Part shown: positions 36,562-48,942 of the stretch, piece by piece
Numbering within the stretch: position 1 is the first letter of the stretch
Layout of the letters: the number at the start of each line of letters is the position of its first letter
NCBI GenBank assembly: GCA_045655645.1
Contig: JAZOPS010000051.1
Span: forward strand, 50,536-114,535
Source of the DNA: Candidatus Fimenecus sp.
GTDB lineage: Bacteria > Bacillota > Clostridia > Oscillospirales > Acutalibacteraceae
Direction of reading: 5' to 3'
DNA length: 64,000 nucleotides
Notes under the pieces: generated by a model
Told to the model about the DNA's origin: nothing
Databases searched by the model: none
Seen by the model: only the letters and a program-made list of their open reading frames with translations
Program-made: the position numbers and the translations under genes

Positions 36562-36590
36562 AAAAAAAGCAGACTAAAAGTCTGCTTTTT
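36562..36590. terminator. Intrinsic terminator closing the ten-gene surface-protein operon
   Basis: GCAGACT (36569-36575) pairs with AGTCTGC (36579-36585), with an A-run and a T-run on both sides. Confidence 0.8.
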
Positions 36591-36600
36591 AATTAAACCT

Positions 36601-38601
36601 TTATTCAGCAATAACTTCGCGTTCATCTTCTTCGTCTTTTTTTCGTTTAAAGATAATTAGAATAACGAAAAACAAGCTCAAAGCCATTAATGAAATAATT
36701 GTAATTGGTTGACCAAAGTACTCAACGAATGTGTATGGAATATCAATAATAGGAACATCTTTTTTAGGTCCTCCGATTGTGATTACAACGCCATCGTTAT
36801 CTTCGTCACCATCAGGTGTTCCGTCATAATCATCAATATGTCCGTCGCCGTCTGAATCGGGGTCTTTTGAATCAGTGATACCATCATTATCGTCATCGTC
36901 GTCATCCTTATCAGGAATACCGTCGCCGTCTGTATCCTTTTTATCATCATCGCCGTCATCGTCATTGTCACCATCATAAAGTGGTCCGTCAGGAAGACCA
37001 TCGTTATCGTCATCGTCGTCTTCGATATCAGGAATACCATCACCATCAGTATCACGCTCCGGACTGTCGGAGTCATCTACATCAGGAATTCCGTCACCGT
37101 CGTCGTCTGCGTCCCTATCGTCATCAATGCCGTCATTGTCGTCATCATCGTCGATTCTGTCAGGTGTACCATCACCATCTGTATCACGGTCAGGATGGTC
37201 AGGGTCGTCCCTATCTGGAATGCCGTCGTTATCATCATCTGAATCGTCGTCATCCTTTATGCCATCGTTATCGTCATCGTCGTCGATTCTGTCAGGCGTA
37301 CCATCACCGTCTGTATCACGGTCAGGATGGTCAGGGTCATCTTTATCGGGAATACCGTCGCCATCATCATCAGGGTCAGGAATATTATTTAAATCATCAT
37401 TTCCATCAGGAAGACCGTCGTTGTCATCATCGTCGTCAACGCTGTCGGGAATACCGTCACCGTCTGTATCACGGTCAGGATGGTCAGGGTCGTCCTGGTC
37501 AAGAATACCGTCGTTATCGTCGTCAGTATCTTTTGTATCAAAAATACCGTCGTCATCATCGTCAGGGTCACTTCTATCAGGAACACCGTCACTATCTGTG
37601 TCACGGTCAGGATGATTCGGGTCGTTTTTATCAGGTATGCCGTCGCCGTCGTCATCTAAGTCATTGTCGTCATCGAGTCCATCATTATCGTCATCAGGGT
37701 CGATTGCATCCGGCAAACCATCGCCGTCTGTATCACGATTTGGGTGGTCAGGGTCATCCTTATCAAGAATTCCGTCACCATCATCATCAGGGTCAGGAGT
37801 TACATTAGGATTTGGGATATCAGGGTCACCATCAGGGTCTTTAAACTCAGGAACATTAGGGTCCCCCGGGTCAGTATCGTCTGGGTCCTTATCAGGAATT
37901 CCATTCTTGTCATTATCTACAATGCTAAAATCTAAATAAATCTTTTCAGCATCAAAAGGAACAAGTACAACTTGTGTGCCATCAGATGCAGTTGTAAGAG
38001 TTACTTCTTTAACATCGGCTCTTTCAATTACAAAAGAAACGTTTGCAAGAACTTCGCCATCTTTTGAAATTGTAACAAGATGTTTACCATCAGCAATATC
38101 TTTCACAAGATATCGTCCATCAGCATTGGTTTTTGCTGTTACACCGCCAAAGTCAAAGCTTAGCTCGGCACCTTTGACTTCTTTCTTACCAAGATAAACA
38201 GTACCTTCAATATCCACCTTGCTACACTTATCATTAGGGTCAGAAGAACATTTTTCAAAAACAACTTTAACAAAGACATCATTAACAATATTTGTAATTT
38301 TAAGATTGCCACTGACAAATTGTTCTGTAACATCAGCGCCATTTACTTCAATGCTTTCAATGTGATAGCCGTTTTCATAAATTACGCCAAGGTCGATTTC
38401 ACCAAATCTATTAATATTAAATTGTGTACCATCAGGGCATAACTTACCATTTACAAGCACATAACCGCCATCATTATAAATAACGGTAACTGAGTGCTCA
38501 TAAGGAACTGATGTTGAAATAACCGTATTCCCGGCAAATGCTGGTATCGCCATAACAAACACCATAGCTAAAGCCACAATGATACTTATTGCTTTTTTCA
38601 A
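36601..38601 (-). CDS. Secreted, C-terminally tail-anchored protein with a CarboxypepD_reg-like Ig module and a long array of thrombospondin type-3-like calcium-binding repeats
   Basis: TTG start behind an AAGGAGGTGG RBS. Signal peptide MKKAISIIVALAMVFVMAIPAFA. Ig-like block GTVYLGKKEVKGAEL...NADGRYLVKDIADGKHLVTISKDG. About 23 DxDxDG-type loops by my count (DTDGDGIPD, DDDNDGLPD...). C-terminal TM segment ISLMALSLFFVILIIF plus KRKKDEEDE. No LPXTG. Confidence 0.8.
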   Translation of the reverse strand: MKKAISIIVALAMVFVMAIPAFAGNTVISTSVPYEHSVTVIYNDGGYVLVNGKLCPDGTQFNINRFGEIDLGVIYENGYHIESIEVNGADVTEQFVSGNLKITNIVNDVFVKVVFEKCSSDPNDKCSKVDIEGTVYLGKKEVKGAELSFDFGGVTAKTNADGRYLVKDIADGKHLVTISKDGEVLANVSFVIERADVKEVTLTTASDGTQVVLVPFDAEKIYLDFSIVDNDKNGIPDKDPDDTDPGDPNVPEFKDPDGDPDIPNPNVTPDPDDDGDGILDKDDPDHPNRDTDGDGLPDAIDPDDDNDGLDDDNDLDDDGDGIPDKNDPNHPDRDTDSDGVPDRSDPDDDDDGIFDTKDTDDDNDGILDQDDPDHPDRDTDGDGIPDSVDDDDDNDGLPDGNDDLNNIPDPDDDGDGIPDKDDPDHPDRDTDGDGTPDRIDDDDDNDGIKDDDDSDDDNDGIPDRDDPDHPDRDTDGDGTPDRIDDDDDNDGIDDDRDADDDGDGIPDVDDSDSPERDTDGDGIPDIEDDDDDNDGLPDGPLYDGDNDDDGDDDKKDTDGDGIPDKDDDDDDNDGITDSKDPDSDGDGHIDDYDGTPDGDEDNDGVVITIGGPKKDVPIIDIPYTFVEYFGQPITIISLMALSLFFVILIIFKRKKDEEDEREVIAE
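36790..37930 (-). repeat. Degenerate coding tandem repeats (about 129-nt / 43-aa super-repeat of three DxDxDG loops)
   Basis: Repeating unit DPDHPDRDTDGDG.PD..DDDDDNDG..D..D.DDDGDGIPD.D. It produces long spurious ORFs in the other frames and on the other strand. Confidence 0.85.
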
Positions 38602-38647
38602 TGAAATCCACCTCCTTAACTAATTCTTTTTAGAAAAATTACGGAGT

Positions 38648-39148
38648 TTATGATTCAGAATACTCTACAGTATATGTGATTGTACCTGTATATGCACCAA
38701 CTGGAGCAGCTCCGAACCCTGCAACTGTAATTGTTGCGTCTGTTCCACCCATATCAGATGCTTTTGCACCATCATTTACGCCTGTAAATGTTGTTTCGCC
38801 TGCACCTGTAAGTGTATATTTAAGTGTTGCTGTTGTATCAGCATTAGTCATAACACCGTTGTTTGCGTCATCAGTATCAGCATCATAAGCAACATCAACA
38901 TTAACCGAAGCACCAACAAGAAGTTGTGATGTAACTGAATAGCTTGCATCATAAGCTGTTGTTTCGTCACCCCAAACAACTGAAATTGTTGCAGGGATTT
39001 GAACTGTGTATGATGCGTCTGTTGTTGCATCATAAGTTGTTTCAACATTAACAATATTTTCACCGACAACAGCTGTTTCTGCAAATGCAGGAACTGTAAC
39101 TGCCATCATCATAACGAGTGCTAATGCAATAGAAATAATCTTTTTCAT
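38648..39148 (-). CDS. Small secreted beta-rich protein, paralog 1 of 7 (unnamed family)
   Basis: Signal peptide MKKIISIALALVMMMAVTVPAFA. Family motifs YTVQIPATISVVWG, YSVTSQL..GASVNVDV and VGAYTGTITYTVEY. AAGGAG-type RBS. Closest of the seven to the C-terminal domain of the giant. Confidence 0.8.
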   Translation of the reverse strand: MKKIISIALALVMMMAVTVPAFAETAVVGENIVNVETTYDATTDASYTVQIPATISVVWGDETTAYDASYSVTSQLLVGASVNVDVAYDADTDDANNGVMTNADTTATLKYTLTGAGETTFTGVNDGAKASDMGGTDATITVAGFGAAPVGAYTGTITYTVEYSES

Positions 39149-39167
39149 AATAAATTACTCCTTTGAA

Positions 39168-39656
39168 TTAAGCGATTTCTGCTGTAAATGTAAGAGTGTC
39201 TGTGTAGCTATCGATTGCAACTGATTTCCAATCGTTAAGAGCAACTTTAACTGTTACCTTTGCTGTATCATCATAAACTGCTGAATCTGCTGTGAATATT
39301 GCATTTTCAAGTGTGTAACCAAGTGAGCCACCTGCTGTGCTTGTCATTTTATAAGCACCATCAGCGTCAGTTACTGTAACCTTAACTGCGTCACCTGTTT
39401 TAAGCTGACTTGCAACTGCATATTCAATGTCAGTTGAAGTTGCTTCCCAAGGAAGTGTCTGAGTTGCAGGGATTGTAACTGTATACCAAGCTGCCTCAGT
39501 ATCACCAATACCGTCATTGTCAGTATCTTTCTTTGTATCTGTATTGATTATTGTATCACTACCTGCATTTGAGCCACCTGTAACAGCTGCAAAAGCAGGA
39601 ACACAGATTGCCATCATCATTACAATAGCCATAGCAATTGCTAAAATCTTTTTCAT
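39168..39656 (-). CDS. Small secreted beta-rich protein, paralog 2 of 7 (has an N-terminal DTDNDGIGD calcium-loop motif)
   Basis: Signal peptide MKKILAIAMAIVMMMAICVPAFA. Motifs YTVTIPATQTLPW, YAVASQLKTGDAVKVTV and W..VAIDSYTDTLTFTAE. Confidence 0.8.
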   Translation of the reverse strand: MKKILAIAMAIVMMMAICVPAFAAVTGGSNAGSDTIINTDTKKDTDNDGIGDTEAAWYTVTIPATQTLPWEATSTDIEYAVASQLKTGDAVKVTVTDADGAYKMTSTAGGSLGYTLENAIFTADSAVYDDTAKVTVKVALNDWKSVAIDSYTDTLTFTAEIA

Positions 39657-39682
39657 TTTAATTACCTCTTTTATGAAATCTA

Positions 39683-40165
39683 TTAAATATCTGTAAGCTC
39701 TGCATTGAATGTTAATGTTCCCACATAATTATCAATTGATGCTTTCTCCCAATTAGTAGTAGGAATCTGCACCATTACGCTTGATGTTTCTGCGTTTTCA
39801 GGAAGAATAACAGAATTTTTTGTAGTGTATTCTGTTGTACCCTCTTTTAAAGAATATTCAAGGAATGCGGTATTAGTAGCATTTTTCATTTTACCATCAG
39901 TATCAGCAGTTACCGTAACTTTTACACCTTTTCCTGTTGCCAATTGACTGTAAACTGAATATTCAATTTCTTCTTCTGTTTGTCCCCAAGTAATTGTAGC
40001 AGTAGCAGGTATTGTTACTGTAAAAGATGCACCAACTGTTGAACCGTCAACTCTTACAGGGGTACTGCCCATTGATGTAGTTGCATCAAGAGTGGCTGCA
40101 AAAACTGGAACGCAGATTATAAACATCAGCACAAATGCCAGAGCTAATGAAAGTATTTTTTTCAT
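39683..40165 (-). CDS. Small secreted beta-rich protein, paralog 3 of 7
   Basis: Signal peptide MKKILSLALAFVLMFIICVPVFA. Motifs FTVTIPATATITWG, YSVYSQLATGKGVKVTV and W..ASIDNYVGTLTFNAE. Confidence 0.8.
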   Translation of the reverse strand: MKKILSLALAFVLMFIICVPVFAATLDATTSMGSTPVRVDGSTVGASFTVTIPATATITWGQTEEEIEYSVYSQLATGKGVKVTVTADTDGKMKNATNTAFLEYSLKEGTTEYTTKNSVILPENAETSSVMVQIPTTNWEKASIDNYVGTLTFNAELTDI

Positions 40166-40187
40166 ATTAAGCCCTCATTTCAAACAA

Positions 40188-40658
40188 TTAAGCGTTAACG
40201 AGCTCTGCTGTAAATGTGATTGTTCCTTCATAAGTAGCGATTGAAGCTGCTGCCCATTCACCTGCATCAATTGTAAGGTTGAATGTGTGAGACTCATTGT
40301 TTACAACTGCACTATTTGCAATACCTGTTGTAGCGTCAGCAACTGCAAATTCGATTGTTTCGTTTGCAGCGTTTGTAAGGTCTTTTGCCTTTTCAAGTGA
40401 AACCTTAACGCGTTTGTCGGTCTGCACCTGGCTTGTAATCTTATACGCTCCTGCTTTTGTTGTATCACCCCAAGTAAGGTCAACTGCTGCAGGAATTTCA
40501 ACTGAGTATGTTCCATCGCCTTTGTCTGCAACACCGTCAACTAAAACTGTTGAACTGCCTGACTGTGCATTAACATCAAGTGTTTTTGTAGCAAAAGCAG
40601 GAACACAAATTGCCATCATCATAATGAGGGCAAGAACTAATGAAATAATCTTTTTCAT
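40188..40658 (-). CDS. Small secreted beta-rich protein, paralog 4 of 7
   Basis: Start trimmed to ATG 40658 (MKKIISLVLALIMMMAICVPAFA), 8 nt after AGGAG. Motifs YSVEIPAAVDLTWG, YKITSQVQTDKRVKVSL and W..ASIATYEGTITFTAE. Confidence 0.8.
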   Translation of the reverse strand: MKKIISLVLALIMMMAICVPAFATKTLDVNAQSGSSTVLVDGVADKGDGTYSVEIPAAVDLTWGDTTKAGAYKITSQVQTDKRVKVSLEKAKDLTNAANETIEFAVADATTGIANSAVVNNESHTFNLTIDAGEWAAASIATYEGTITFTAELVNA

Positions 40659-40682
40659 AAAATGCATCTCCTGACCATTAAA

Positions 40683-41159
40683 TTATGCATCAACAACTGT
40701 TGATGTGAATGTAAGTGTATCGCTATATGTATCAATAGCTGCTGCATTCCAAACTGTTGCATCAACATTGATACTATAATTAAATGTTGCATTTGTAACA
40801 ACAGGACCTGTTGTTTTACCTGTAGTTGTACCGCCAAGAGTATAAGCAAGAGTAGCGTTATCAGCGTTTACCATGTTAAGTCCGTCGCCTGTATCAGCAA
40901 CCACAACCTGAACTGCTTTACCTGTTCTAAGGTTTGAATTAACTTTATAATCAAAGTTTGTTGTTGCAGTGCCCCAAACAATGTTCATTGTTGCAGGATA
41001 AGTAACTGTATAAGTACCATCGCCTGTAATTGCAGATGTATCTGTCTGAACTGTTGCAGTACCTGACTGTACATTAGCGTTGAGTTCTTCTGCAAAAGCA
41101 GGAACCATAACAACCATCATCATAACGAGTGCCATTACTAAAGAAATAACTTTTTTCAT
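40683..41159 (-). CDS. Small secreted beta-rich protein, paralog 5 of 7
   Basis: Signal peptide MKKVISLVMALVMMMVVMVPAFA. Motifs YTVTYPATMNIVWG, YKVNSNLRTGKAVQVVV and W..AAIDTYSDTLTFTS. Confidence 0.8.
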   Translation of the reverse strand: MKKVISLVMALVMMMVVMVPAFAEELNANVQSGTATVQTDTSAITGDGTYTVTYPATMNIVWGTATTNFDYKVNSNLRTGKAVQVVVADTGDGLNMVNADNATLAYTLGGTTTGKTTGPVVTNATFNYSINVDATVWNAAAIDTYSDTLTFTSTVVDA

Positions 41160-41189
41160 AATCTATATCTCCTTTTATTATTTATAAAA

Positions 41190-41690
41190 TTATACTCTTT
41201 CAATTTCTGCTGTATATGTGATAATATCACTGTATTCTTCAACAACTGCTGTATTCCAGTTATCTGCAGAAATTGCAACTGTAACCGTCTTTGTTGCTGC
41301 AGGGTAAATTGTAGGAACATCTGCTGAGAAAGTAATGCCTTCACCTGCAAGTGCGTAAGGGATTTCATAAGCACTGTCAACAGTTTTCATAACTAATGCG
41401 CCTGACACTGTAACTTTAACTCTGCCATCTCTCTTAAGGTGTGATTCAACTGTGTATGAAACATCAGTTTCTTCTGTACCCCAAGGAATTGTTGTGTCAG
41501 CAGGGATTGTAATTGTGTATTCTTCTGCTTCTTTGTCGCCGACACCATCACCATCAGTGTCTTTTAATGTTGATGTGTCGATAACTACGTCTGCACTGTC
41601 AGGATTAGCGTTAAGTTCAACTGCAAATGCTGGAACCATAACAGCCATCATCATAACAAGTGCCATTGCGAATGATAAAATCTTTTTCAT
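41190..41690 (-). CDS. Small secreted beta-rich protein, paralog 6 of 7 (has an N-terminal DTDGDGVGD calcium-loop motif)
   Basis: Signal peptide MKKILSFAMALVMMMAVMVPAFA. Motifs YTITIPADTTIPWG, YTVESHLKRDGRVKVTV and W..AVVEEYSDIITYTAE. Confidence 0.8.
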   Translation of the reverse strand: MKKILSFAMALVMMMAVMVPAFAVELNANPDSADVVIDTSTLKDTDGDGVGDKEAEEYTITIPADTTIPWGTEETDVSYTVESHLKRDGRVKVTVSGALVMKTVDSAYEIPYALAGEGITFSADVPTIYPAATKTVTVAISADNWNTAVVEEYSDIITYTAEIERV

Positions 41691-41724
41691 AATATATTAC
41701 TCCTTTTTAAGATTAAAATACATA

Positions 41725-42174
41725 TTAAACTGCGTCGGTGTATTCAGCAGTGAATGTTAAAATGTCACTGTGTTTACCACTTGCAGCGTAAAGCCATTCT
41801 GTTTCTTCAACCTCTACTGAAAGAGTGAAACTTTCACCATAATCACCGGGGAAGAAAGAGATGTCTTCGCTAAGCAAACTGTATGCAATAGTTTTTTCGC
41901 TATCCGCCTCGTTTACCAGTTTGAAATCATTTTGTGAAGAAACTGAAACCTTTACCATCTTACTAGGTTCAATAAGCATTTTGGTTGCCGTTACTTCACC
42001 AATGTCCATAGCAGTTGTTTGCCACGGAATTTCAATATCTGCAGGATAAGTTAGTTCGTATTCTGCTCGGTCAGCCTTTGTGGAAATTTCCATAGACTGA
42101 CTACTAGCGAATACCGGCATAATGCAAAGTACAAGCATTACAGCCGCTAATCCTACTGAAAAGAATTTTTTCAT
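41725..42174 (-). CDS. Small secreted beta-rich protein, paralog 7 of 7 (most divergent)
   Basis: Start trimmed to ATG 42174 (MKKFFSVGLAAVMLVLCIMPVFA), 9 nt after GGAGGAG. Motifs YELTYPADIEIPW, KMVKVSV and W..AASGKHSDILTFTAE. Confidence 0.75.
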   Translation of the reverse strand: MKKFFSVGLAAVMLVLCIMPVFASSQSMEISTKADRAEYELTYPADIEIPWQTTAMDIGEVTATKMLIEPSKMVKVSVSSQNDFKLVNEADSEKTIAYSLLSEDISFFPGDYGESFTLSVEVEETEWLYAASGKHSDILTFTAEYTDAV

Positions 42175-42195
42175 TTCTGTCATCTCCTCCCCTTA

Positions 42196-45100
42196 TTAAC
42201 TTGTTATGTCGACTGTATAAGTCAACTGCGTACTATATGCGCCAACAGGAACGCTGTTCCAACCTGTAACTGTAATGCTTGGTGCATTGGTTGGTTTTGT
42301 TCCATCGGCTACATCGCCCGTAAATCTTTCTGTACCAAAATTAGCCTTTGAATAAGCTAATTCATAAGTAACTCCTGTGTCGTCATTGATAAGTTTATCA
42401 GTTCCATCATTGCTTACTGAGCTTACGCTTACTAAAAGCACATTACTACCAAGCGTTGCTTTAACAGAATACGAAACATCAACAGGACCGTTTGTATCCC
42501 AATCAATATCAACTTTTGCAGGGATTTCAACTTCATAGATGATTGGGTCTGTACCATTTGTTGACTGGAAAACAACATCAACTTCTATTACTTCAAGAAT
42601 ATTACTTGAATCTGCAAGAACTTCTGAAATATCTGTTCCGTCAGCAGTTTTCTCTGCCACAACAGCAGAATCAACTGCATAGAATTTAAGTGTGTTTGTA
42701 TAAGTTGAACCTGTCGGCACTTTTGCTGCCTCGGATGCGTCAACACTAATTGTATAAGGATACCTTGTAATGCTTGATGAGTCACCATTGTTATAAGAAG
42801 CAACCCACGCTGTAACTATTCCATCTGCATTCTGATAGTCTACAAGACCATCTGCGGTAACACCGTTATACATCAAGTCTTCGAAAGCTTTGTATGTTGA
42901 ACCGCCTGTTTGAGTCCATTTAAGGCTTGACTGTGCATAAAGTTCAACACTTCTGTTAAGTCTTGTTGCAACATAACTTAAGTCGATATATGCAGTATAT
43001 TGCATTTTTTCCGCTGAATCGTTATTAAGCACAATTTTTTCAAGTGCCGCGTTAGATTCATTTACTGATGCAAAGCCCTCTATATGTGGTAAGAGAAGTG
43101 CTAGGTCTGCATAAGCGTAGTTAAGTTCATCAACGAGAGCATATCGTCTTAAGAATGCCTCATATTGACCTAAACAATACTCAATTTCATTAAGAGTAGA
43201 TGTATCAAGCACCGTTTTTGCCGCAATTTTAGACGAAACATCTGAATATGCATCTTTAATTCGTTTTTCGTATGTAACGATACCACCTAGAACAGTTTCA
43301 CCTGCTTTTGGTACAATAGTTGTTGAGTTATCATAAATAGCTTCCGCAGCATCGTACATATTCATATATGCGGCAGCCGTGTCAGTATCATCAGACAAAA
43401 ACATCTTACCAAAAACGCTTATATCGGCATACATATCTGTATAGTATTTCAGAGCGTTTACAGTATCTCCATTTTCGTCTGTAATTTCTGCTTTATAACT
43501 AACCATTCTCAAAAAGTCTTTTGCATCAACTACTCCGTCACCATTGTTATCATCTTCAGTGTCAATGATTCTGTCAGCATCTTCGTCAGAATGAGAACTC
43601 AAGCCATAAATATTTATGATGTTTGACTTAAATGTTGCAACATCTGCGATGATACCGTCTTTTTCAACGCCCTCATGAACATCTGCATCGCCGCCAATAA
43701 GTATTGCACGATTTGCAGCATTATAGGCATTGTAAAGTGCATTATATTCATCCGTGTACCCTGATTCAAAGGTTACGCCGTCTTTATACATAAATGCATT
43801 TCTTTCTGCAATACTTAGTCGGTGTAAACCTTTTTCATAAATTGTAACTACCTGAGCCGCTTCTTCAATACTTGCAAAGCCTAATTGTTGTAAATAATTT
43901 TCTTTGTGTTCTTTATACAAATCATGGATAGATTCACTGTTAACAGAGTACGTTTTTGCTACTGCTGAAATTTCAGCTATATCTGTTTGCAGTTGTTGTA
44001 TCGCTGTAGCATCCGCTGTTGCTGTGTAATAAGGTTGCCATTGCTCTTTCTTTATTTCGTTAGTGTAGTCCGTATAAAGAGCTCTGTATTTTTTCTCAAG
44101 TATTTCTTCTTTACAGTATTTAACTTCAGGAATTCCTTTTTGGTAATCCGAAAGTGCTAAAAAAGCATTATTACATGCCTCAAATGATGCCTTGAATTCT
44201 GTCTCCGAAGCATACGGGTCAATAGTTGAAACCATTTTTTCAAAGTTATTTGAGTCAACAGTCTTAACTCCAAAATACTCATCCATATTAGTAATATAGA
44301 TTCCATTATCCTGATTTAATTCGCCGTTACAGTTTGTGTTATTACTTACACGAGTTTGACATTTAGGGTCATAAGTGAAGCCTAAACCATCAATAACAAC
44401 TTTCTTGCCCTCGTTATTATTAGACTCATCCCAAACCGAAACCTTAACCTGTTTAATCTTATATCCATCATCAAGAATGTTGTCAAGGTATTCAAAGTTT
44501 TTATCCAGATTAGCCACACCGCCATCAGTTGGAATTCTAAAGCATGTAAGAGGAATACGAATAAAGCCTTTGTAACCTTGTAATGTATTAAGTTCAGAAG
44601 GCGCAATTGTACAAATACCAGGGTCAACTTCTCTATAAAATGTATGTGCTGCCTCAATATCAGTTTGCGTAATTTTTAGCTGTTGTTTTTCCCATTCACC
44701 ATTTTTATCAAGAAGATAAATAACCGGGAATTCACCCTCTCTGCCAGCACAGAAATAACAGTTTACATCTTTTCCATTTGAATCAGAAAGAATAAACTTA
44801 ACGTTAAAATTAAGATTGCTTACCTCTGAAAAGTCAACATACATTACGAAAGAATTAGGAATAACACCTTCACCATATCTAGTTTTAACTTCTTCTTCCG
44901 TACCTTGCGAAGCATTAGTTTTAACTGCAATACCACTCAAATCAAGTCCGGGAAGATTTCCCCAAGTATCTGCCTCTGCACCTAAATAGGTTGTTGAAAG
45001 AGTAGCAATTTTCCAGTCTTTATTTGCAGGGTCGCATACCAGATTTCCCTTAAGGTTAATCATTGCACCTAATGAATTATTAAATCCTTTATTTGTAATC

Positions 45101-47652
45101 TGAGCATCCATTCTTGAGAAGTATGTTCCCAAGCTACTATCAACAGTTTCACCTGTAGGTCTATAATCGTACGGTGACCAACCAATAGCTGTACCGCCCC
45201 ATTCACCAGGTTGGTCGATAACCTTACCCGAAACATATGTTGTGAAATTACCTGTACTATTTATATCGGTAGGTTTATTGTCTTGGTATGCAGGATAGTC
45301 ATCATAGTACATATCCGACAACTGACCGTATGAATAATTTGTTTCAAAGTCGTTGAATGGGATAAATGGATAAGCACCGATTGACTGACCTGTCTTAACC
45401 TCTTCACCAACAATAAAATCATAAAGTTCAAGGAATTTTGCTTTTGCATCTGCACCAAGCAATTCGTGGTGAGAAAGGTTAAATGTTTCATAAATTGCCA
45501 TCAACTGTTTAAGTGTTGACTGTAATTCTTTATCTGTATGGTCTATAAACTCAGGATTGGGGAGTTTTTCAATTTCATTCTCAAAATAAACAACGGCATT
45601 GTAGTTAGATGCAGCATCATCTGAATAAACAAAACCATGGAATTGCTCGACTAATTTATATCTATTATATGCCTCTGTATGGCCCAGAGTTTTCAACTTT
45701 TCAATAGCTTGTTCAACTTTGTCTTCATTTGAAAGAGCTGAACTGTTATTTATGCCAAAACATTCAATATAATTAATGATAATGTCATCAATCATATCCT
45801 TTGCACCAAAGTCGTTAAGTGAAGGAATTTCACCAAAATATTGCATTATATATTGTGCAACTGCCTTTGGAACTTCAGTAGTTCTGTCATAGAAGCCTGA
45901 CATTTTGATACCATAAGTACCACTATTATTGTTAGATATATTAACTTCCGAAGGGAATGCTAATGAGGAAGTTGAAACTACATATCCATTAGCATCAAAA
46001 TCAGCGCTACTACCAATATTTTTTTTGCAGAACATTACTTGGTCAATGTAGAAAGATTTATGAACTGAGTCCGCTGACCAATCTGCAACCTGAACACCTG
46101 CGGAAACAAGGTCTTCAATAGCAAATTGAGGGTCTGTAACTGTATATGTAGTTCCACTTACCGAAACTACATTAGCATCACTTAGAATTTTACCCATTTC
46201 ATGAGTATTTGTTTGGAAAATTCTAGTTGATTTCTCAGTACGGTCATAAATAATATATGCATTGTTTATATTTGTTCCTGCTGTGTTTACCTTAAATCCA
46301 ACTTTTGAATCATAAGTCTCTGATGCTACTGTTCTTGTATTGCCCTCAGCATCTTGAAGGACCAATGTTGAGCCTGATGGGAAATAGTGCTTATTGGCAT
46401 AAGCGTTAAGGCTATTTGCATTACCATTACCTTCACTTTCCCAGTTGCCCATATCATTATCTGCAACAATATATTGGTCAGATTGTAAAAGAAAGTAATC
46501 GATAGGGATACGAACAAATCCTTTATAACCCGAAAGATTTGTGAAATAACCATCAGTCATCGAGGTTGATTCCCAAAGGCCATCAGCATTCTGAATATAA
46601 ATTCCGTTGCTTATTGTTCCCGTGTTTTTCCCAGCTACTGCCGCAGTTGAGAAAGTTGTGCCATAGTGTGATGTGTAGTTTGTAGTGTCATCTCTCCAGT
46701 GTTCGACACTTTTTTCGTTAGCTGATAAAGTGAATGCAAATTTATTAATTTGAACACGACTTAAGTCAACATAAAACCAAACTTCTTCAGCATTTGTAAA
46801 ATCATAGTGGTCACGGCTCCATGTAGTTGTTCCTACATAAGGTGTTCCGTTGTATGCATTAGCAATCCAATAACGATAGCCAGCACTACCATTATAACCC
46901 ATGCCAGCCATCTGACCATTAACATCAATTAACTCCGCACTCTGACGTTCGGAATAGTCTGGTACCGTTGCACCGTTATTAGACTGCGAATTGCTCTTAT
47001 CAACATCCGCATTACCCTTTTGCTCAAAAAGAAGCATTTCACGAACAATCCAGCTCTCATTAGGAGAAAAGTCGTCGTTAATAATGTAATAAGGTGTTTC
47101 TGAAAGGAGTGTATGAATTTTATCTGATACCCAACCATCGCTATCTACAGCCTGAATTGATATGTCATAACTTGACTCAATTTTATAGCCTTCAAGTCCT
47201 GTGAATGCACCCGGCCAATAATAGATTGAGTTAGGCAAGTTGTTTCCTTCTGTATTGTCAACTGTAAATGTTCCTCCTGCAGGAGTTGTAGATTGACTTA
47301 CATCAATATTTTCTGTCCAGATTGGTTCGTGATTACCGTCATCATCCATTCTTGTAATTTCAAAAATGTAATTTGTAATCCTCTTTTTAGATGGACTTGC
47401 TGCAGTATAACTATCCCATGTTGCCGCAGGGGTTGCATGTGGGAATGAAACCTTTATACTACCATCAACATTAAGAGTTGCAATAAAGGATGTATTAGAC
47501 GCAGCATTGTTGCTACCGTCACCCCAATATGGTGCAGGGTCATAAGCACCTCCACCGATGGCTCCAGCCATCATAAGTGGAACAGATGTAACAATCATTA
47601 CAACCGCTAATATGAGCGCTATACACTTTTTGGAAGATAATTTTTTCTTCAT
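42196..47652 (-). CDS. Giant secreted protein (1818 aa) whose C-terminal ~125 aa is a copy of the small-paralog domain
   Basis: Signal peptide MKKKLSSKKCIALILAVVMIVTSVPLMMAGA. Two internal homologous modules (YVDLSRV...GYKGFVRIPIDYF and YVDFSEV...GYKGFIRIPLTCF). Long Tyr/Ala/Glu-rich regions that look helical. One EF-hand/dockerin-like loop, DDNNGDGVVDAKD. The C-terminus (YEVEIPAKVDIDW ... VSYSVKATL ... W..VPVGAYSTQLTYTVD) matches the paralog motifs. No enzyme motif recognised. Confidence 0.85.
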   Translation of the reverse strand: MKKKLSSKKCIALILAVVMIVTSVPLMMAGAIGGGAYDPAPYWGDGSNNAASNTSFIATLNVDGSIKVSFPHATPAATWDSYTAASPSKKRITNYIFEITRMDDDGNHEPIWTENIDVSQSTTPAGGTFTVDNTEGNNLPNSIYYWPGAFTGLEGYKIESSYDISIQAVDSDGWVSDKIHTLLSETPYYIINDDFSPNESWIVREMLLFEQKGNADVDKSNSQSNNGATVPDYSERQSAELIDVNGQMAGMGYNGSAGYRYWIANAYNGTPYVGTTTWSRDHYDFTNAEEVWFYVDLSRVQINKFAFTLSANEKSVEHWRDDTTNYTSHYGTTFSTAAVAGKNTGTISNGIYIQNADGLWESTSMTDGYFTNLSGYKGFVRIPIDYFLLQSDQYIVADNDMGNWESEGNGNANSLNAYANKHYFPSGSTLVLQDAEGNTRTVASETYDSKVGFKVNTAGTNINNAYIIYDRTEKSTRIFQTNTHEMGKILSDANVVSVSGTTYTVTDPQFAIEDLVSAGVQVADWSADSVHKSFYIDQVMFCKKNIGSSADFDANGYVVSTSSLAFPSEVNISNNNSGTYGIKMSGFYDRTTEVPKAVAQYIMQYFGEIPSLNDFGAKDMIDDIIINYIECFGINNSSALSNEDKVEQAIEKLKTLGHTEAYNRYKLVEQFHGFVYSDDAASNYNAVVYFENEIEKLPNPEFIDHTDKELQSTLKQLMAIYETFNLSHHELLGADAKAKFLELYDFIVGEEVKTGQSIGAYPFIPFNDFETNYSYGQLSDMYYDDYPAYQDNKPTDINSTGNFTTYVSGKVIDQPGEWGGTAIGWSPYDYRPTGETVDSSLGTYFSRMDAQITNKGFNNSLGAMINLKGNLVCDPANKDWKIATLSTTYLGAEADTWGNLPGLDLSGIAVKTNASQGTEEEVKTRYGEGVIPNSFVMYVDFSEVSNLNFNVKFILSDSNGKDVNCYFCAGREGEFPVIYLLDKNGEWEKQQLKITQTDIEAAHTFYREVDPGICTIAPSELNTLQGYKGFIRIPLTCFRIPTDGGVANLDKNFEYLDNILDDGYKIKQVKVSVWDESNNNEGKKVVIDGLGFTYDPKCQTRVSNNTNCNGELNQDNGIYITNMDEYFGVKTVDSNNFEKMVSTIDPYASETEFKASFEACNNAFLALSDYQKGIPEVKYCKEEILEKKYRALYTDYTNEIKKEQWQPYYTATADATAIQQLQTDIAEISAVAKTYSVNSESIHDLYKEHKENYLQQLGFASIEEAAQVVTIYEKGLHRLSIAERNAFMYKDGVTFESGYTDEYNALYNAYNAANRAILIGGDADVHEGVEKDGIIADVATFKSNIINIYGLSSHSDEDADRIIDTEDDNNGDGVVDAKDFLRMVSYKAEITDENGDTVNALKYYTDMYADISVFGKMFLSDDTDTAAAYMNMYDAAEAIYDNSTTIVPKAGETVLGGIVTYEKRIKDAYSDVSSKIAAKTVLDTSTLNEIEYCLGQYEAFLRRYALVDELNYAYADLALLLPHIEGFASVNESNAALEKIVLNNDSAEKMQYTAYIDLSYVATRLNRSVELYAQSSLKWTQTGGSTYKAFEDLMYNGVTADGLVDYQNADGIVTAWVASYNNGDSSSITRYPYTISVDASEAAKVPTGSTYTNTLKFYAVDSAVVAEKTADGTDISEVLADSSNILEVIEVDVVFQSTNGTDPIIYEVEIPAKVDIDWDTNGPVDVSYSVKATLGSNVLLVSVSSVSNDGTDKLINDDTGVTYELAYSKANFGTERFTGDVADGTKPTNAPSITVTGWNSVPVGAYSTQLTYTVDITS

Positions 47653-47692
47653 TACTTCTCTTCCTTTCTGTTTCTAATCTATATAAAGTAAT

Positions 47693-48511
47693 TTATTTTA
47701 CAATAAGGTCTGTTTTTACTACAAAATTGTTAAGCGGAGTTCTTGCCTGGTCATAAGAATATGGCTGCTGATGAACTATCGCCTTGTATTCGCCCGCTTC
47801 AAGTGAACGGGAAATGTTAAATCTTGAAACTGAATAACCCGGTTGAACAAGCCCTGACTGATAAAGTTTTTCATCGCTTGCATCAATAACACCGTTTTCA
47901 TTGTTGTCAAGGTAGATTGTAAATACTACAAAACAGATATCTTTATTTTTTTCAGAGTTTGAAAGGATAAAGTTCTGCTCAACCTGACCTGCTTTGAAAT
48001 TAATCTGAGCAATACCATTCATTGTGACATTCTTTGAGCCCATATCTTCAACTTTATCTGGTAAATCAAGTTCACCTAAACCTTGTTGCTGATTGACATC
48101 AAGAATACTTGGAGTTGTTGTGGTTGGCTCTTCATCACCACCATCAATCAATATTCCGAGACCTGAAATTAATCCCGCAAGCACTAAAAGGCCAAGCACG
48201 ATTAACATAACAAATGCAAGAATATTATCTTTTTTAACTGCGATAAATGAGCCAGACTCAAGTTCAATATAGCCTATTGTCTTATATCTTGCAGAAGATG
48301 TTGGTTTATAAACTATTTCTTCAATATCATTTGAAGTGATTGTGCCGATTTCATCTTTACCATAAGCCAACTGACCGACAACACGGATACCTCCGTCTGG
48401 ATAAAGAGCTTTCATCTCTTTAGCAGTATAATACCCCTGTTCAAAGCCCGTCTCTTTATTGTAATATAATTCTGTATAGTCGTTACCGTTTTTAATAATA
48501 AATATTGCCAA
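47693..48511 (-). CDS. Bitopic membrane protein: cytoplasmic N-domain, one TM helix, extracellular Ig-like domain with an EF-hand-like loop (first gene of the operon)
   Basis: Start trimmed to TTG 48511, 7 nt after GGGAGGG; the ATG given in the track lies inside the promoter. TM segment ILAFVMLIVLGLLVLAGLISGLGILI, a Thr-rich linker, and the loop DNNENGVIDASD. Confidence 0.7.
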   Translation of the reverse strand: MAIFIIKNGNDYTELYYNKETGFEQGYYTAKEMKALYPDGGIRVVGQLAYGKDEIGTITSNDIEEIVYKPTSSARYKTIGYIELESGSFIAVKKDNILAFVMLIVLGLLVLAGLISGLGILIDGGDEEPTTTTPSILDVNQQQGLGELDLPDKVEDMGSKNVTMNGIAQINFKAGQVEQNFILSNSEKNKDICFVVFTIYLDNNENGVIDASDEKLYQSGLVQPGYSVSRFNISRSLEAGEYKAIVHQQPYSYDQARTPLNNFVVKTDLIVK

Positions 48512-48569
48512 AACGATACCCTCCCAAAAATAAATATAATTGAAGATAATATTACTATTATAACAAAAT

Positions 48570-48598
48570 ATTTTACCCCTTTTTATAATATTTGTCAA
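48570..48598 (-). promoter_or_regulatory. Near-consensus sigma-A promoter of the ten-gene operon
   Basis: Minus strand reads TTGACA (48598-48593), a 17-nt spacer, then TAAAAT (48575-48570). It lies about 55 nt upstream of the TTG start. Confidence 0.7.
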
Positions 48599-48773: not shown

Positions 48774-48809
48774 ATAAAAAATCCCGAATGATTTCTCATT
48801 CGGGATTTT
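48774..48809 (-). terminator. Intrinsic terminator immediately after tRNA-Leu
   Basis: AATCCCGAATGA (48780-48791) pairs with TCATTCGGGATT (48796-48807), with a T-run on the minus strand. Confidence 0.85.
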
Positions 48810-48896
48810 TGGTGCCGGTGACCGGGGTCGAACCGGTACGGTATCGCTACCACTGGATTTTGAGTCCAGCACGTCTGCCAATTCCATCACACCGGC
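48810..48896 (-). tRNA. tRNA-Leu (anticodon CAA), class II with a long variable arm and a genomically encoded CCA
   Basis: Minus strand reads GCCGGTGTGATGGAATTGGCAGACGTGCTGGACTCAAAATCCAGTGGTAGCGATACCGTACCGGTTCGACCCCGGTCACCGGCACCA. Acceptor stem GCCGGTG/CACCGGC. Anticodon stem CTGGA/TCCAG with loop CTCAAAA. Variable-arm hairpin GGTA-GCGA-TACC. T-loop TTCGACC. Confidence 0.93.
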
Positions 48897-48913
48897 ATTT
48901 ATGTGACTGTGAT

Positions 48914-48942
48914 ATTATATGAAATTATTTTAAAATTGTCAA
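48914..48942 (-). promoter_or_regulatory. Consensus sigma-A promoter of tRNA-Leu
   Basis: Minus strand reads TTGACA (48942-48937), a 17-nt spacer, then TATAAT (48919-48914). It ends 17 nt upstream of the mature tRNA 5' end. Confidence 0.75.

Follow-up and report, generated by a model that had tools for sequence, protein, structure and literature searches.

What kind of surface structure is encoded by a block of ten consecutive genes whose products are named 'hypothetical protein', or left unnamed, in the databases? The block occupies positions 36,562 to 48,598 of a 64,000-nucleotide stretch of DNA from Candidatus Fimenecus sp. (assembly GCA_045655645.1, contig JAZOPS010000051.1). This whole stretch is referred to here as the window, and all coordinates are positions within it. 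The ten genes form a real, conserved and unannotated surface system of gut Clostridia. Most likely it is a new fibre or display apparatus that works by strand complementation and bears a giant adhesin varying between strains. In the list of open reading frames they follow one another on the minus strand, and they are numbered g1 to g10 in that order:

48570..48598, minus strand: promoter-like site TTGACA-17-TAAAAT in front of g1, matching 11 of 12 consensus positions
47693..48511, minus strand: g1, bitopic membrane protein of 272 amino acids, TTG start at 48511
42196..47652, minus strand: g2, the giant, secreted, 1818 amino acids, proposed tip adhesin
41725..42174, minus strand: g3, first small pilin-like paralog, 149 amino acids, mature N-terminus SSQSMEIST
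41190..41690, minus strand: g4, pilin-like paralog, 166 amino acids, DVVIDT as N-terminal strand, then a DTDGDGVGD loop
40683..41159, minus strand: g5, pilin-like paralog, 158 amino acids, profile E = 1e-52
40188..40658, minus strand: g6, pilin-like paralog, 156 amino acids counted from MKK
39683..40165, minus strand: g7, pilin-like paralog, 160 amino acids, used for the structure model
39168..39656, minus strand: g8, pilin-like paralog, 162 amino acids, DTDNDGIGD loop
38648..39148, minus strand: g9, last pilin-like paralog, 166 amino acids, C-terminal strand signature PVGAY..ITYTV
36601..38601, minus strand: g10, 666 amino acids, with a signal peptide, a C-terminal transmembrane helix (36649-36705) and a short charged tail
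36562..36590, minus strand: intrinsic terminator, a 12-bp stem (dG -14.6 kcal/mol, z = -4.7 against shuffled sequences) followed by a U-run

The genes are spaced 19-46 nucleotides apart, and every gap carries a ribosome-binding site of the GGAGG/AAGGAG type. Nine of the ten products have Sec signal peptides, the exception being the bitopic g1. The promoter-like site lies 3' of the terminator of a tRNA-Leu gene and ~55 nucleotides 5' of the g1 ribosome-binding site (GGGAGG) and TTG start. Because matches to 11 of 12 positions are equally common in shuffled sequence, this promoter is credible by position alone. The terminator at 36590-36562 is real as judged by its folding. Short gaps, a single outer promoter and a single terminator argue for co-expression. 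The original prediction, made from the DNA letters without database searches, had described a one-strand block of ten genes with a ribosome-binding site in each gap, containing several paralogs, a giant with the same C-terminal domain and two membrane proteins, all bracketed by a promoter at 48598-48570 and a strong terminator. This layout is confirmed.

The element that unites the operon is a domain shared by the seven small paralogs and the C-terminal ~125 residues of the giant, which align at 21-33% identity. Three sites in it are invariant: Pro-Ala within the first core strand (consensus YTVTIPA); a Trp in the conserved '(I/L)xW' stretch that directly follows this strand (IPW or ITW, for instance); and, in the C-terminal strand (consensus Y.DTLTFTAE), a Thr. 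The PVGAY..ITYTV signature is common to g9 and the pilin domain of the giant. An AlphaFold2 model of mature g7 has a predicted local distance difference test score (pLDDT) of 85.6; residues 21-137 score above 90, and the first 20, below 50, are disordered. When this model is compared with the PDB using Foldseek, chaperone-usher pilins lead the matches, among them the pilin domain of CsuE (E = 5e-4, TM-score 0.54 over the whole query). The other top matches are CfaB, PsaA, HdaB, MyfA, PapA, DraE, FimH/FimF/FimG and the PapG pilin domain, and the donor-strand archaeal thread subunit 7pnb is also present. For the last 335 residues of the giant (pLDDT 85.7), the top 14 matches are all two-domain chaperone-usher adhesins or engineered tandem pilins complemented by a donor strand in cis. 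They include FimH with a FimG extension (E = 3.5e-7), FimH-FimC, CfaB-CfaB, CfaE-CfaB, CsuE and FocH. The TM-scores of this two-domain model, 0.22-0.29, are low, as expected when domain orientation differs, so the match is evidence of fold class only. Based on these models, the family domain is predicted to fold like the pilins of chaperone-usher systems.

Three parts of the giant are needed to follow how such a domain might be completed:

42196..42543, minus strand: C-terminal pilin-like domain (residues ~1704-1818) and stop codon, profile E = 3e-21, conserved between strains
42565..42600, minus strand: strand ILEVIEVDVVFQ (residues 1685-1696), candidate in-cis donor strand in the AlphaFold2 model
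42537..47500, minus strand: strain-hypervariable passenger (residues ~51-1705), defined by comparison with conspecific contigs

In the small proteins the ~125-residue domain is preceded by a flexible extension of ~15-20 residues with a conserved phi-x-phi-x-T strand motif. Mature N-termini carry SM(E/T)IST in g3-type proteins, DV(I/V)I(K/N)T in g4-type proteins, and V.V.T and related motifs in the others. The positional equivalent of this extension in the giant is ILEVIEVDVVFQ, which sits between the penultimate domain and the pilin domain and is ordered in the model (model residues 202-213, pLDDT >90). A 23-residue helical linker joins it to GSTYTNTLKFYAVD, the last strand of the penultimate domain and a degenerate copy of the family's C-terminal motif. 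The modelled geometry of GSTYTNTLKFYAVD, linker and ILEVIEVDVVFQ would fit a donor strand acting in cis. The last gene of the operon carries a comparable element. The mature N-terminus of g10, GNTVISTS (38509-38532), resembles the pilin extensions, and g10 proteins as a group begin with GNTVISTS, ESMELKT or NVNLST, followed by VP..H.ITV.YN(D/E)GGY. Donors and acceptors were also compared across loci. The pilin domain of the giant is closest to the last paralog of its array in 26 of 44 loci, and the N-terminal strand of g10 best matches the extension of the first paralog in 18 of 44, against ~15% by chance. Similar acceptors (the giant's C-terminal domain and g9-type proteins) and similar donors (g3-type proteins and g10) thus fit an arrangement in which g3 inserts into the giant and g10 into the last subunit.

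Comparison between strains points to the same domain as a boundary. For this purpose the window was aligned with the conspecific contigs L001, L003 and L006 using blastn, and with L004 at protein level. The paralogs are 99-100% identical between strains as proteins, and the flanks 93-97% identical as nucleotides. Between 47500 and 42537, corresponding to residues ~51 to ~1705 of the giant, no blastn similarity is detectable. Protein identity between passengers falls to 28-29%, with an intermediate allele at 71% in L004. The passenger alone has been replaced, leaving the pilin domain 93-97% identical. Similarity resumes only at the first core strand of that domain, so the in-cis strand travels with the variable part. 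A swap boundary placed exactly at the shared domain argues that this domain contacts conserved protein partners, and the pattern is the one expected where a conserved module for incorporation is coupled to a binding module that diversifies. The exact 1818-residue allele was found on one contig in a collection of 15 billion proteins, and the adjacent paralogs on 7-33 contigs. Identical g7 also occurs in GCA_045632525.1 (Ca. Fimenecus sp.).

The system is not confined to a single species. A profile search with the family recovered 797 cluster representatives (50% identity) at E<=1e-3 and 266 at E<=1e-10, mostly secreted proteins of 150-180 amino acids, together with giants of 1640-1870 amino acids carrying the domain at their extreme C-terminus and other fusions. 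Scanning species-representative genomes with an alignment of the giants identified 56 loci (giants of 1640-1900 amino acids over both searches), nearly all of them in gut metagenome-assembled genomes (MAGs), from hosts including Candidatus Fimenecus, Ruminococcaceae UBA bins, Eubacterium sp. CAG:180 and Acutalibacter. The 'Ruminococcus-type clostridium' guessed beforehand was close, the host being a Clostridia gut MAG. The synteny survey suggested at the same time shows that the operon order recurs in most of these species-level loci: wherever the operon is complete, g1 is followed by the giant, 4-11 paralogs and g10. Flanking genes vary from locus to locus, and no conserved sortase, SipW-type peptidase, chaperone-like or usher-like gene was found nearby in the 56 loci. 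The paralog array itself is ordered. At its head stands a g3-type protein in practically all loci (37-99% identity to g3); the second is nearly always g4-type and the last usually g9-type, and copy number varies in the middle of the array. Among the paralogs g3 is the most conserved, and in the species surveyed it comes directly after the giant. Its proposed role is that of an adaptor to the giant.

Both membrane proteins belong to the conserved core. The g1 reading frame as listed, 301 amino acids, begins inside the promoter. The start adopted in the original prediction was therefore too far upstream, the true start being the TTG at 48511; gene calls on related contigs also give 272 amino acids. 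From a conserved cytoplasmic N-terminal domain (YPxGG..VVGQ) the protein crosses the membrane by a helix (residues 97-122, 48146-48223) and continues, through a linker rich in Thr, into a beta-rich extracellular domain of ~120 residues. Orthologues are present in 59 of 62 loci, and the gene maps place them directly 5' of the giant. Searches with g1 against Pfam, the PDB and profiles returned no match, and ten of its orthologues likewise reached no curated family above its cut-off. In g10 the N-terminal strand is followed by two beta-sandwich domains, of which the second gives a weak prealbumin/CarboxypepD_reg-like signal (six of ten orthologues, best E = 5.7e-6). Profile-profile comparison found both the extracellular domain of g1 and the N-terminal domains of g10 to be unrelated to the pilin domain. 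A repeat block at 36832-37788 then contributes 22 D.D.DG..D repeats (45% Asp), with weak matches to TSP3-type repeats (5wtl, E = 0.003; thrombospondin-1, E = 0.22). Orthologues of g10 close the operon in 54 loci. Most have 293-365 amino acids and no long acidic repeat, so the block is an optional spacer rather than a core feature. Contig L006 (10692-10699) also lacks the whole Asp-rich block (36801-37826 in the window), encoding a g10 of 322 rather than 666 amino acids, through either a real deletion in that strain or a collapse of the repeats in short-read assembly. The original prediction's description of the system as Ca-dependent consequently does not hold as a core property, the DxDxDG block being missing from most g10 orthologues and possibly from one conspecific strain.

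We can now outline how the products might work together. The giant would be exported first and so come to form the distal tip, with its C-terminal pilin domain accepting the extension of g3. Each of g4 to g9 would then insert its extension into the preceding subunit, in an order suggested by the conserved gene order. The product of g10, which has a pilin-type N-terminal strand and no pilin domain, could fill the groove of the last subunit, and its C-terminal transmembrane helix would tie the fibre to the membrane; we propose g10 as a strand-donating membrane anchor and terminator. In this host the acidic TSP3-like block may provide a wall-spanning and probably Ca2+-stiffened spacer. We infer that g1 acts as a membrane-tethered assembly or holding factor. 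The ~1650-residue passenger of the giant would bind an external ligand and be exchanged between strains under diversifying selection. The parts of this scheme differ in strength. It is probable that giant, paralogs and anchor are linked to one another by strand complementation through the shared domain, whether or not they form a polymer. For the fuller proposal, a Sec-dependent donor-strand-exchange fibre that is independent of chaperone, usher and sortase and has a hypervariable tip adhesin and a strand-donating membrane anchor, we consider the case evenly balanced. More tentatively, and a little short of that balance, the operon may represent an unrecognised class of Gram-positive pilus: a self-assembling, chaperone-usher-like heteropolymer whose order is set by extension/groove specificity over 4-11 paralogs, with a membrane cap-anchor and a tip of ~1800 residues whose passenger is swapped.

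Several observations weigh against a fibre. The TM-scores are modest for the single domain and the two-domain model alike, and immunoglobulin (Ig)-like sandwiches resemble a great many structures. Sequence comparison links the proteins searched to no pilin family (Fimbrial, SCPU, Fimbrial_CS1 and others). A regular expression for phi-x-phi-x-[T/S..] is modestly enriched in the extensions, at 160 against 115 shuffled of 401, so the donor-strand argument rests on positional conservation. The donor/acceptor pairing statistics are based on short motifs. Finally, the published model for WxL clusters, to which we return below, is a non-polymeric platform on peptidoglycan.

Searches against curated families place the system in none of them. 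None of the ten window proteins reaches the cut-off of any Pfam or NCBIfam family, nor do 121 diverse relatives of the paralogs or ten g10 orthologues, and Pfam finds no family in 18 diverse giants. The original prediction had taken the operon for a candidate undescribed, enzyme-free surface system and had recognised no LPXTG signal. This is borne out, with no confident profile match placing the paralogs in a characterised family, no LPXTG in any of the ten products and no adjacent conserved sortase. Fimbrial_CS1 is touched by one of the 121 relatives (E = 0.0044), with nothing consistent. No PapD-like chaperone or usher was detected in the operon by Pfam or NCBIfam, and no Peptidase_M73/TasA domain in the window proteins or the 121 relatives. 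Sequence searches of the PDB returned signal-peptide artefacts (Fab leader sequences) or matches to TSP3 repeats. A phage origin was considered and rejected, as the viral fold library gave weak or uncharacterised matches. An Ena-like spore appendage was likewise set aside: there is no Enas/DUF3992 signal beyond one at E = 0.13, and the promoter belongs to the housekeeping sigma-70 class. Literature searches returned no description of the family, or of strand-exchange pili in Clostridia.

Known fibre systems nonetheless offer partial parallels. Like chaperone-usher pili (type 1/P, CFA/I class 5 and archaic Csu), the operon would combine a predicted pilin fold, an N-terminal extension with a strand motif, a tip protein with a C-terminal pilin domain and several specialised subunits in fixed order. 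In P pili, PapH is a terminating component that donates a strand and is not a normal subunit; g10 is proposed as a PapH-like strand-donating terminator. Unlike those systems, the operon contains no chaperone or usher and belongs to a monoderm host without an outer membrane. It shows no detectable sequence homology to them, anchoring would use a transmembrane protein, and the tip protein is six times the size of FimH. An analogy to strand-exchange fibres had been drawn from the gene layout, and in view of the predicted fold it survives. Strand donation without a chaperone is known outside diderms. TasA forms a Sec-exported, chaperone-free fibre in which TapA donates an N-terminal strand to the subunit (PMC9674648, PMC10151520). 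Further chaperone-free strand-donation fibres of monoderms and archaea include archaeal threads (PMC9715654), cannulae (10.1101/2024.12.30.630787) and the Pam pili of the candidate phyla radiation (10.64898/2026.03.03.709456). Together with the bundling pili, these systems share with the proposed apparatus Sec export and strand complementation outside a single membrane. TasA differs in being camelysin-like and accompanied by SipW, whereas the present proteins have another fold and family, a multi-paralog array and a giant tip protein. Sortase pili share a tip-shaft-base gene logic and a Gram-positive surface, and the second domain of g10 is weakly prealbumin/SpaA/SdrD_B-like, but LPXTG, sortase gene and pilin motif are all lacking here, and BcpA ranks 31st in the fold search with the giant's C-terminal region.

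The closest architectural analogue appears to be the WxL (csc) cluster, in which a small WxL protein and a large WxL protein are accompanied by a partner of 337-365 amino acids with two Ig-like domains and a C-terminal transmembrane segment (PMC10599100, PMC9772566). In these clusters AlphaFold predicts that a strand from WxLIP completes an incomplete WxL sandwich (PMC10599100, PMC9772566). In both kinds of locus, small proteins made up of the domain alone are encoded along with a large one, in which adhesin-like passengers precede a C-terminal copy of it, and with a two-domain transmembrane partner; neither includes a sortase or enzyme. The csc-type pairing of small and large carriers of one domain is present as architecture, with no homology implied, and the comparison with csc/WxL clusters drawn in the original prediction stands, the published layout being the same (PMC10599100, PMC9772566). 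The differences are substantial. The host class here is Clostridia, rather than Lactobacillales/Bacillales (Bacilli). The array has 4-11 ordered paralogs in place of typically one small WxL protein, the large protein has ~1800 amino acids compared with 500-1000, there is an additional bitopic g1, and the fold matches chaperone-usher pilins. Membership of the WxL family was rejected. PF13731 matched none of the ten window proteins (E<=1) and none of the 121 relatives (E<=0.01, nor at E<=10 among the first 25 of 129 weak families), the sole score being E = 0.85 for one g10 orthologue, which is noise. DUF916 (PF06030) and DUF3324 (PF11797), which make up WxLIP together with its transmembrane helix, gave no match in the ten window proteins, in nine g10 orthologues or, within the same limits, in the 121 relatives. 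A regular-expression search for W-x-L, a motif that WxL domains bear twice on adjacent strands, found it in none of the ten products. In its workings the operon would resemble a WxL cluster, yet it cannot be classed with them, because it lacks every membership feature that sequence can test.

These comparisons frame the alternatives. If the operon encoded a WxL-like, non-polymeric platform, the paralogs and the C-terminal domain of the giant would be peptidoglycan modules, g10 would supply a strand in the manner of WxLIP, and the giant would be displayed without a fibre. The architecture of the published clusters (PMC10599100, PMC9772566) agrees with this, as does the usual form of g10, with two beta-sandwich domains and a transmembrane helix in 293-365 amino acids, and large WxL proteins carry passengers similar to those found elsewhere in the family (leucine-rich repeats and adhesin-like giants). 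We nevertheless consider such a platform unlikely, since PF13731, DUF916, DUF3324 and W-x-L motifs are all lacking, the fold matches indicate pilins that polymerise, and 4-11 distinct paralogs in fixed order, each with a pilin-type extension, would be left unexplained.

The paralogs could also be alternative subunits, one or a few being used at a time under regulated switching, for example in homopolymeric fibres or a sheath. The shifts in mid-array copy number between species, from 4 to 11, and the allelic replacement of the giant, which implies diversifying pressure on the locus, would suit antigenic variation of this kind. It becomes very unlikely once it is noted that the paralogs are 99-100% identical where the giants differ completely, and so are not the variable element, that orthology extends from genus to genus at the first, second and last places of the array, and that the short gaps with a single outer promoter and terminator argue for co-expression. 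Equally doubtful is an unrelated secretome of beta-sandwich proteins, soluble or wall-associated, that bind dietary or host glycans without any assembly, with the pilin likeness a generic coincidence of the Ig fold. The modest TM-scores, a weak profile match to the Bacteroides surface glycan-binding protein 7kwb (E = 0.14) and two GYKGF(I/V)RIP beta-rich modules in the giant that could be carbohydrate-binding all lend themselves to this explanation. Against it, pilins rank top consistently in two independent models, conservation of the membrane-anchored partners goes strictly together with that of the other genes, and the edge of the recombined segment coincides exactly with the shared domain, which argues for conserved protein-protein contact.

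Candidatus Fimenecus and its relatives belong to the common, as yet uncultured Clostridia of the gut. The operon occurs in dozens of their species, and the family, of ~800 sequence clusters, has no Pfam model. If the fibre proposed above is real, it represents a new assembly route for Gram-positive pili, with the chaperone-usher pilin fold and strand exchange operating in monoderms without a chaperone or usher. The operon could then be the missing structural link between the WxL clusters of Bacilli and true strand-exchange pili. A real fibre would also be a reason to look again at WxL clusters as possible polymers. Given the bounded swap of its passenger, the giant is a likely determinant of specificity for host, diet particles, phage or partner cells, and would be useful both as a strain marker and as a target for functional metagenomics.

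Other features of the family and of the window deserve mention. Outside the window, three proteins (P0132, P0157 and P0160) carry BspA-type leucine-rich repeats before the same C-terminal domain, which therefore appears to be a general C-terminal display or incorporation module. In two others (P0229 and P0236), also outside the window, the pilin-like domain is fused behind a signal peptide and an unmistakable ubiquitin-like domain (MQIF..TLEV...GIPP..Q.L...GK.LEDG.TL.DY.I); judged from their sequences, they would be a secreted, surface-displayed bacterial ubiquitin fold. Within the passenger of the giant, two homologous modules at residues ~285-385 and ~935-1035 (~46500-46800 and ~44550-44850) contain the motifs AEEVWFYVDLS...GYKGFVRIPI and SFVMYVDFSEV...GYKGFIRIPL. 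They are the best-conserved stretches across giants and may be ligand-binding beta-sandwiches. Near residues 1356-1410 the giant also contains the EF-hand/dockerin-like DTEDDNNGDGVVDAKD, with weak Dockerin_1 and calmodulin matches. In g4 (41568-41621) and g8 (39534-39587), a single DxDxDG loop separates the N-terminal strand from the core. Directly upstream of the operon promoter, a tRNA-Leu(CAA) gene (48810-48896, minus strand, within 48775-48942) is served by a separate, perfect TTGACA-17-TATAAT promoter (48942-48914) and by a terminator hairpin.

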